Source: Schmidtea polychroa
Lineage: Eukaryota
Assembly: GCA_044892525.1 (NCBI GenBank)
Contig: CM097886.1
Coordinates: 9,176,001-9,240,000 of the forward strand
Length of the DNA: 64,000 bases
Reading direction: 5' to 3'
Shown here: positions 27,840 to 28,200 of the stretch, one piece after another
Numbering within the stretch: position 1 is the first letter of the stretch
Layout: each line of letters opens with the position of its first letter
Program-made: the position numbers and the translations under genes
The notes under the pieces: generated by a model
What the model was told of the DNA's origin: nothing
The model's database searches: none
Seen by the model: only the letters and a program-made list of their open reading frames with translations

Positions 27840-28200
27840 TTGTATGAGTCTTTTCCATCCACCGGCGCGGATAATATGTGGTTCGATTGTATTTTCAATG
27901 ATTGTAACTGTCATTTCTACATGATTTGCGAATTGTTTGTTTGGTATTTTTCTCGCTGCTAATCCCATCAAATTGTACATTAGATACGTTAACACTACTA
28001 AATGATGTTCGTCGTCGTTTGCGTTTAAAGTTAATTGTTCAATTACTCTTCTTGTCTCTTCCCAATCGGTTTTAGTGGTTTTTGTCTTCCGGATATTGTA
28101 TTCCATAGCTGTCTGGCATCTACGCTTGCTACTTTTCGTTGCCATAACCGTCTCAATTGCGGGTTTGTTATTATTAACATATCTTTTACTAGCTCTCGTA
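27840..28200 (-). CDS. Bcl-2-like domain upstream of env
   Basis: EETRRVIEQL, a hydrophobic helix, then TIEPHIIRAGGWKRL matching the BH2 pattern (W/H)I..xGGW. The BH1 NWGR motif is absent. A frame change occurs between 28205 and 28043. Confidence 0.55.

Follow-up and report, generated by a model that had tools for sequence, protein, structure and literature searches.

A Bcl-2-like domain directly ahead of Env in a giant Burro-type retroelement of Schmidtea polychroa

Why a retroelement should carry something that resembles Bcl-2 immediately ahead of its envelope protein is the question raised by a 64,000-nucleotide stretch of Schmidtea polychroa DNA (the window, to which all coordinates refer). 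A sequence-only reading of the window had placed a Bcl-2-like domain at 27,840-28,200, directly upstream of an env signal peptide, and had proposed an anti-apoptotic or innate-immune antagonist that is co-expressed with env. The segment lies inside a giant gypsy LTR retroelement of the Burro type, which occupies 5,382-48,344 on the minus strand and has the following parts.

44,974-48,344, minus strand: 5' LTR, with TG...CA ends, ~0.8 kb shorter than the 3' LTR
39,749-42,163, minus strand: gag (Retrotrans_gag, CCHC knuckles; Pfam), with a frameshift near 39,783
29,969-38,976, minus strand: non-LTR retrotransposon, a secondary insertion that interrupts the giant element upstream of the Bcl-2-like domain
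28,880-29,011, minus strand: weak ubiquitin-like domain (PF00240, E 0.0037, under the cut-off)
28,088-28,270, minus strand: N-terminal portion of the Bcl-2-like domain, with its first helices and PQLRRLW, severed from the remainder by a frameshift
27,840-28,087, minus strand: C-terminal portion of the Bcl-2-like domain (degenerate BH1 position, hairpin helices, BH2-like GGW)
27,687-27,728, minus strand: hydrophobic segment, which likely serves Env as an internal signal sequence and may anchor the Bcl-2-like product by its C terminus
25,548-27,668, minus strand: Env, a fusion glycoprotein of the mononegavirus type (PF24664, E 2e-27 and 9e-47)
21,350-25,359, minus strand: second, 5'-truncated copy of the non-LTR retrotransposon, between env and protease
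14,642-21,352, minus strand: protease-RT-RNase H-integrase-ankyrin part of the polyprotein (Pfam)
12,641-14,056, minus strand: TRAF-like accessory frame (RING, zinc fingers, MATH), a separate frame (Pfam)
5,382-9,570, minus strand: 3' LTR (self-match, termini)

After subtraction of ~13.3 kb of secondary insertions and duplication, the element measures ~29.6 kb, with an LTR of ~4.2 kb. Self-comparison of the window showed that the LTR pair is 98.2% identical across 1,194 bases and 99.8% identical across 2,200 bases, and there is a 4-base target duplication at the element ends; these near-identical LTRs and the target duplication indicate a recent insertion. The coding order from 5' to 3' is gag, ubiquitin-like domain, Bcl-2-like domain, env, and pol, followed by the separate TRAF-like frame. 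Two further accessory frames after pol (11,385-12,440 and 9,802-10,455) are without a clear Pfam family, and a 254-residue frame inside the LTR (5,917-6,681 and 45,492-46,166) has no Pfam match and is kept in a sister copy. A stretch at ~44,950-44,967 on the minus strand, 7 bases inside the 5' LTR, is a candidate primer-binding site by its likeness to the tRNA-Pro type. Satellite-like arrays of ~30-base and 14-base repeats are present at 60,860-63,230, outside the giant element.

The inserted non-LTR retrotransposon encodes an RT and has a weak match to a Ulp1-type protease (E 0.0036). Its 3' end is a run of T, not A, on the coding strand, 11 to 35 bases long, which was seen with varied flanks in 12 of 12 loci (L068-L079), two of which are the window copies. 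The full-length insertion is flanked by a perfect 329-base target duplication (29,640-29,968 is identical to 38,977-39,305), an unusually long one for a target-site duplication.

The motifs that the sequence-only reading had named within the domain were found where it said. The BH2-like IEPHIIRAGGWKRL lies at 27,846-27,887 on the minus strand, in the frame 26,964-28,208, and the helix spacing from RRVIEQL (28,032-28,052, minus strand, same frame) is correct: by hand count, the V of RRVIEQL and the W of GGW are 63 residues apart, versus 62 for the matching positions in an aligned Bcl-2 chain. PQLRRLW (28,142-28,162, minus strand) does sit in the preceding frame, 28,043-29,998, and NWGR is absent as reported. 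The degenerate BH1 position corresponds to 27,996-28,016. The hydrophobic segment and the Env start (27,651-27,668) fall just beyond the range of 27,840-28,200 that had been assigned.

The change of frame within the domain is a lesion of the window copy, caused by a small deletion near 28,087 that shifts the frame. All 19 of the 19 sister loci read from the upstream part past the GGW to the Env start without a change of frame, and a programmed frameshift at this position was ruled out since none of the 19 needs one. Further lesions of the window copy are another frameshift, near 39,783, and two in-frame stops, at 26,964-26,966 and 25,545-25,547. Because of the frameshift within the domain and the interruption upstream, the window copy is unable to make a Bcl-2-like product. 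The predicted co-expression with env is supported by the sister copies, where both belong to one polyprotein frame of ~4,800 residues; one sister frame has gag at residues 142 to 393, the Bcl-2-like domain at 1597 to 1647, Env extending to 2299, protease at 2489, and RT at 2802. This family is abundant, with 727 candidates, and each of the 150 that we scored was 93 to 100% identical. Only 4 of these 150 matches had a stop inside the domain and 68 were in frames of at least 4,500 residues, which overstates intactness because the 150 were the best scoring of the 727. Contigs from sequencing runs that we guessed to be RNA cover the region, and neither transcription nor splicing was seen in them.

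The arrangement itself is already known, and a BCL2-like motif ahead of env in Burro has been on record since 2018-2019. Burro (GYPSM1) elements of planarians (Jurka 2007; Grohme et al. 2018) are gypsy-like elements of more than 30 kb with an ORF1 of 4,873 residues, in which the Env homology falls between BCL2 and the protease (reviewed in PMC6431247). That review credits the BCL2-like motif to Grohme et al. 2018 and places a ubiquitin-like motif ahead of it (PMC6431247). Burro and the window element have in common a size of ~30 kb, one ORF of ~4,800 residues (in sister copies, the window copy being broken), Gag, ubiquitin-like and BCL2-like domains, an in-frame mononegavirus-like Env, PR-RT-RH-IN, ankyrin repeats, and MATH/TRAF cargo, and the ubiquitin-like domain is at the place of the Burro Ubi2/SUMO-like motif (PMC6431247). 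They differ in the TRAF part, which here has a frame of its own downstream of pol, whereas it is inside ORF1 in S. mediterranea and in an upstream accessory ORF in the D. tigrina element (PMC6431247). In addition, Burro1 has a BIR (IAP-like) domain, while a Pfam scan detected no BIR domain among the window frames of at least 200 residues or the sister frames. The assignment to the Burro type is by this shared architecture.

A genome search with Bcl-2 and Env profiles identified three further retroelement lineages (B, C, and D, the window lineage being A) that carry a related domain in the same place. The four lineages are mutually 21 to 34% identical in the domain and 38 to 71% identical in Env. 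When six retroelement sequences from these lineages were aligned, all six rows matched the Bcl-2 family PF00452 at an E of ≤0.1, with a best E of 3.4e-7. The window lineage scored 14.5 to 16.9 bits (E 0.009 to 0.055) and lineage B 29.0 to 29.6 bits (E 1e-6), both under the curated cut-off of 31.4 bits. Single-sequence PDB searches with the window lineage gave no Bcl-2 match. A profile made from the six retroelement rows only matched 112 PDB sequences at an E of ≤1 (best E, 1.2e-4); the best 60 of the 112 were Bcl-2/Bcl-xL throughout, and the alignment to PDB Bcl-2/Bcl-xL spanned helix 4 to BH2 and contained a single gap.

We also compared the retroelement profile with one built on set A3, which comprises five further Bcl-2-like loci of this genome (one row, L046, is probably Polinton cargo), and this profile-profile comparison gave 94.9% and an E of 4.4e-8 over 69 columns. 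The five-locus profile placed the domain frame first among 627 window frames, with an E of 0.00054 versus 0.034 for the runner-up. It gave the four lineages 21.1, 27.2, 16.4, and 30.1 bits, and the maximum after 1,000 shuffles of each lineage was 9.3 to 10.6 bits; the uninterrupted sister domain scored 21.1 bits versus a shuffle maximum of 10.6 (972 of 1,000 shuffles reported). In the reverse profile test, 5 of 5 rows exceeded every shuffle. The homology is confined to the C-terminal half, and the assignment of the N-terminal helices is purely positional. The BH2 motif W-x-x-x-x-GGW was found at the correct distance from helix 4; its GGW is invariant in all six rows, and its first Trp is kept in lineages B to D and is His in the window lineage only. 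In protein databases, the only true relative was P0001 (44 to 46% identical), with none among proteins of near length, while P0002, a repeat surface protein, was rejected as a chance match. The ESM Atlas gave no usable match for lineage A or B. Taken together, the profile tests and shuffles support the claimed likeness to Bcl-2 as one of ancestry, and we conclude that the domain very probably descends from Bcl-2.

The comparison loci deserve a comment of their own. We had taken set A3 as host genes throughout and dropped this for L046, which adjoins a TBP-like gene. Based on that neighbor, L046 is probably Polinton cargo, and the same holds for the multicopy type represented by L049, which in addition has an A32-like ATPase nearby. 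A second class of mobile elements, probably Polintons, thus also carries Bcl-2-like cargo. Short multicopy Bcl-2-like genes (L046, L049, and many more) occur in the genome, one type apparently with a small intron, and L021-L027 (G000:C4, ~89.95-90.83 Mb) form a cluster of seven near-identical Bcl-2 genes with NWGR intact.

The sequence-only reading had named AlphaFold plus Foldseek as a check, to be refuted by a predicted fold other than a Bcl-2 helical bundle. We modeled the uninterrupted sister domain L002 with the six retroelement rows, and we made a second model by adding five nonretroelement Bcl-2-like rows, which renders it partly circular. Both AlphaFold models were all helical and of low confidence (mean pLDDT, 44 and 58; pTM, 0.31 and 0.42). 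Foldseek returned nothing at an E of ≤0.001 for either of these low-confidence models, and for one of them Bcl-2 chains appeared only at an E of ≥2.2, among many helical proteins, while the matches listed for the other included no Bcl-2. VIA-align of both low-confidence models gave nothing at a Z of ≥8 and no Bcl-2 among the matches listed. At this confidence, the models speak neither for nor against a Bcl-2 bundle.

NWGR is described as the usual mark of herpesviral Bcl-2 proteins (PMC11209288), and a working BH3 groove is argued to be unlikely once its Gly is lost (PMC8998228). In 4 of 4 lineages the BH1 Gly position is Asp or Glu and the Trp is lost. The BH3 motif L-x-x-x-G-D was not found in the window lineage. 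PQLRRLW, which had been offered as a possible BH3, contains no Gly-Asp and is not conserved in lineages B to D, and it is the helix after it that lines up with the BH3-type helix of other Bcl-2-like loci. The assignment of PQLRRLW as BH3 is therefore not supported. The BH3-equivalent helix is the one that is broken in the window copy. From this helix to BH1 there are 27 to 32 residues in lineages A and B versus 39 to 48 in five Bcl-2-like loci, a count that was made for these two of the four lineages on a single MAFFT alignment, in which the eight rows are distant from one another. Since the BH1 Gly is missing from all four lineages, the proposed antiapoptotic action through a BH3 groove is doubtful. 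The domain thus resembles cellular Bcl-2/Bcl-xL (PF00452) in its helix 4-BH2 spacing, which is within one residue, its GGW, the hydrophobic pattern of its central helices, and the hydrophobic segment at its C terminus. It is unlike them in having no NWGR, no Gly-Asp BH3, a His for the first BH2 Trp (window lineage), a shorter groove region, and a longer linker to the hydrophobic segment and in being made as part of a polyprotein.

What follows the domain is shared by all four lineages, in which it is succeeded by basic residues, a hydrophobic run, and the Env start. Basic residues followed by a hydrophobic run typify an internal signal sequence whose N-side lies in the cytosol. The uncharged run begins 21 to 49 residues past the BH2 Trp, after three to five basic residues, and the most hydrophobic 11 residues end 8 to 11 residues ahead of the conserved Env start. 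In the window, the segment is an uncharged run of 26 residues after three basic residues and begins ~41 residues past the BH2 Trp. Its hydropathy in the window lineage is 2.05 for the best 11 residues, with a 19-residue mean of 1.27 to 1.40 that is below the threshold of 1.6; the 19-residue values for lineages B to D are 1.96 to 2.43. Env has a C-terminal membrane segment near 25,944-25,979. From this anatomy, we consider it likely, with good confidence, that the segment acts as the internal signal of Env. In flaviviral capsid anchors, such a segment remains attached to the C terminus of the upstream product after cleavage and anchors it. The earlier proposal that the segment is both Bcl-2 tail anchor and Env signal fits this anatomy in four lineages, which makes the double role plausible; the role itself would be exerted at the ER and not at mitochondria. 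Given the moderate hydropathy and the distance of ~41 residues from the BH2 Trp, the window-lineage segment may instead act as a signal only and be degraded afterwards.

We determined how the domain has been maintained by comparing subfamilies. In a pair from the window lineage, the domain differs at 66 of 84 synonymous sites versus 14 of 315 nonsynonymous sites, which gives a dN of 0.045 with synonymous sites saturated. The dN/dS is 0.10 for lineage B and 0.39 for lineage C, each from one pair. Nonsynonymous change is far below synonymous change, which indicates that the domain is maintained as a protein. Neighboring regions are conserved alike, with subfamily identity of 81 to 99% per 100-residue bin along the compared stretch. 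As judged from these substitutions, strong purifying selection acts on the domain, though no more than on its neighbors. In the trees, the six retroelement domains all fall to one side of a branch supported at 62/91 and 84/90. With this support, a single capture is neither established nor rejected by the trees, and the donor cannot be named.

Based on these results, our leading interpretation, which we hold tentatively and as somewhat short of probable, is that this is a degenerate Bcl-2-related domain that would be tethered to the ER and act as a noncanonical modulator of host survival or stress signaling. The domain would be translated within the single gag-env-pol polyprotein of a Burro-type element, and the internal signal of Env would be recognized during translation. 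Signal peptidase would then cut a few residues ahead of the conserved Env start, and the one signal-like segment together with the one membrane segment of Env would return the chain to the cytosol for the protease and RT. The element's own protease would free the N-side of the domain, and the hydrophobic segment would stay on it, anchoring it at the cytosolic face of the ER. There, the tethered domain could dampen host death or stress signaling through a noncanonical contact rather than a BH3 groove. Signal recognition, both cleavages, the ER location, and the effect on the host cell are steps that we infer. Bcl-2-fold viral proteins without a groove that inhibit NF-κB instead have been described (PMC2494871). 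Two of these, vaccinia A52 and B14, may serve by analogy as a model in which a genetic parasite reuses the Bcl-2 scaffold for other host contacts. A52 and B14 are proteins of their own whose sequences show no detectable similarity to Bcl-2, unlike the window domain, which keeps BH2 and precedes a signal.

BH3 helices are bound by several poxviral Bcl-2 proteins whose sequences hardly resemble that of Bcl-2, and a remodeled groove might likewise make the domain an antiapoptotic protein of viral type that captures host BH3 helices (Bak/Bax-like or BH3-only). The Bcl-2 homology and the C-terminal hydrophobic segment are consistent with such a protein. Schmidtea has a tripartite Bcl-2 pathway (PMC8998228), and Burro1 reportedly shields stem cells from caspase-mediated death, though through its IAP-like part (cited in PMC13465017). 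However, none of the four lineages retains the BH1 Gly or Trp, a Gly-Asp BH3 is absent, the groove region is shorter, and a cotranslational signal would put the product on the ER and not on mitochondria. We therefore regard BH3 capture as unlikely.

The Bcl-2 scaffold could also have become structural. In that case, the signal anchor would tie the Gag-containing N-terminal fragment to the Env membrane until protease cleavage, with the helical domain as a bridge that resembles a matrix or leader peptide. All four lineages have the domain at one fixed position, directly ahead of the Env signal, and differ in their other cargo, although the fixed position may reflect one old capture (tree support, 62/91 and 84/90). 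The helical pattern has been kept while groove residues were lost, and the polyprotein topology would tether Gag. A motif of the type seen at domain borders is absent between BH2 and the Env start in 5 of 5 spanning frames, by a post hoc pattern for protease sites that failed at all positions in the sister subfamily L056; because the pattern was drawn from the same sequence, it cannot be tested fairly by shuffle counts. On the other side, the literature found on these elements shows no particle, and the neighboring cargo (TRAF-like, ubiquitin-like, and ankyrin) suggests host signaling. A purely structural role appears improbable to us. That the likeness to Bcl-2 is superficial, or that the domain is a folded remnant without a role of its own that is kept as an in-frame spacer, is more improbable still: it would accord with the scores under the Pfam cut-off, the lack of a single-sequence PDB match, the low-confidence models without a clear Bcl-2 fold match, and the similar degree of conservation of the whole polyprotein, but the profile tests exceed all shuffles in both directions, lineage B reaches an E of 1e-6, and a dN of 0.045 with saturated synonymous sites is more than a spacer needs.

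The ER-tethered modulator and the Gag tether could also be combined. It is conceivable, though rather unlikely, that the tail anchor of a captured Bcl-2 gene became the Env signal and that the groove-less domain serves as both a tether of the Gag precursor and a survival regulator at the ER in four lineages. If this were true, it would be a use of the Bcl-2 fold that we did not find in the literature examined.

A literature search found no functional test of the Burro BCL2-like domain and no description of its lost Gly or of the signal-anchor anatomy; any of these may be contained in the text or supplements of Grohme et al. 2018 or Lee et al. 2026. What is added here is that the arrangement is kept over four lineages of one genome and under purifying selection, with the BH1 residues for BH3 capture lost. 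Burro1 is reported to protect stem cells through its RING-BIR region (Lee et al. 2026, as cited in PMC13465017), and Burro1 and Burro4 are expressed upon loss of PIWI (PMC8532177). The question thereby becomes sharper, namely, whether the Bcl-2-like domain is a second pro-survival cargo beside the IAP-like one, a groove-less signaling decoy, or a structural tether, and it bears on the persistence of very abundant retroelements in planarian stem cells.
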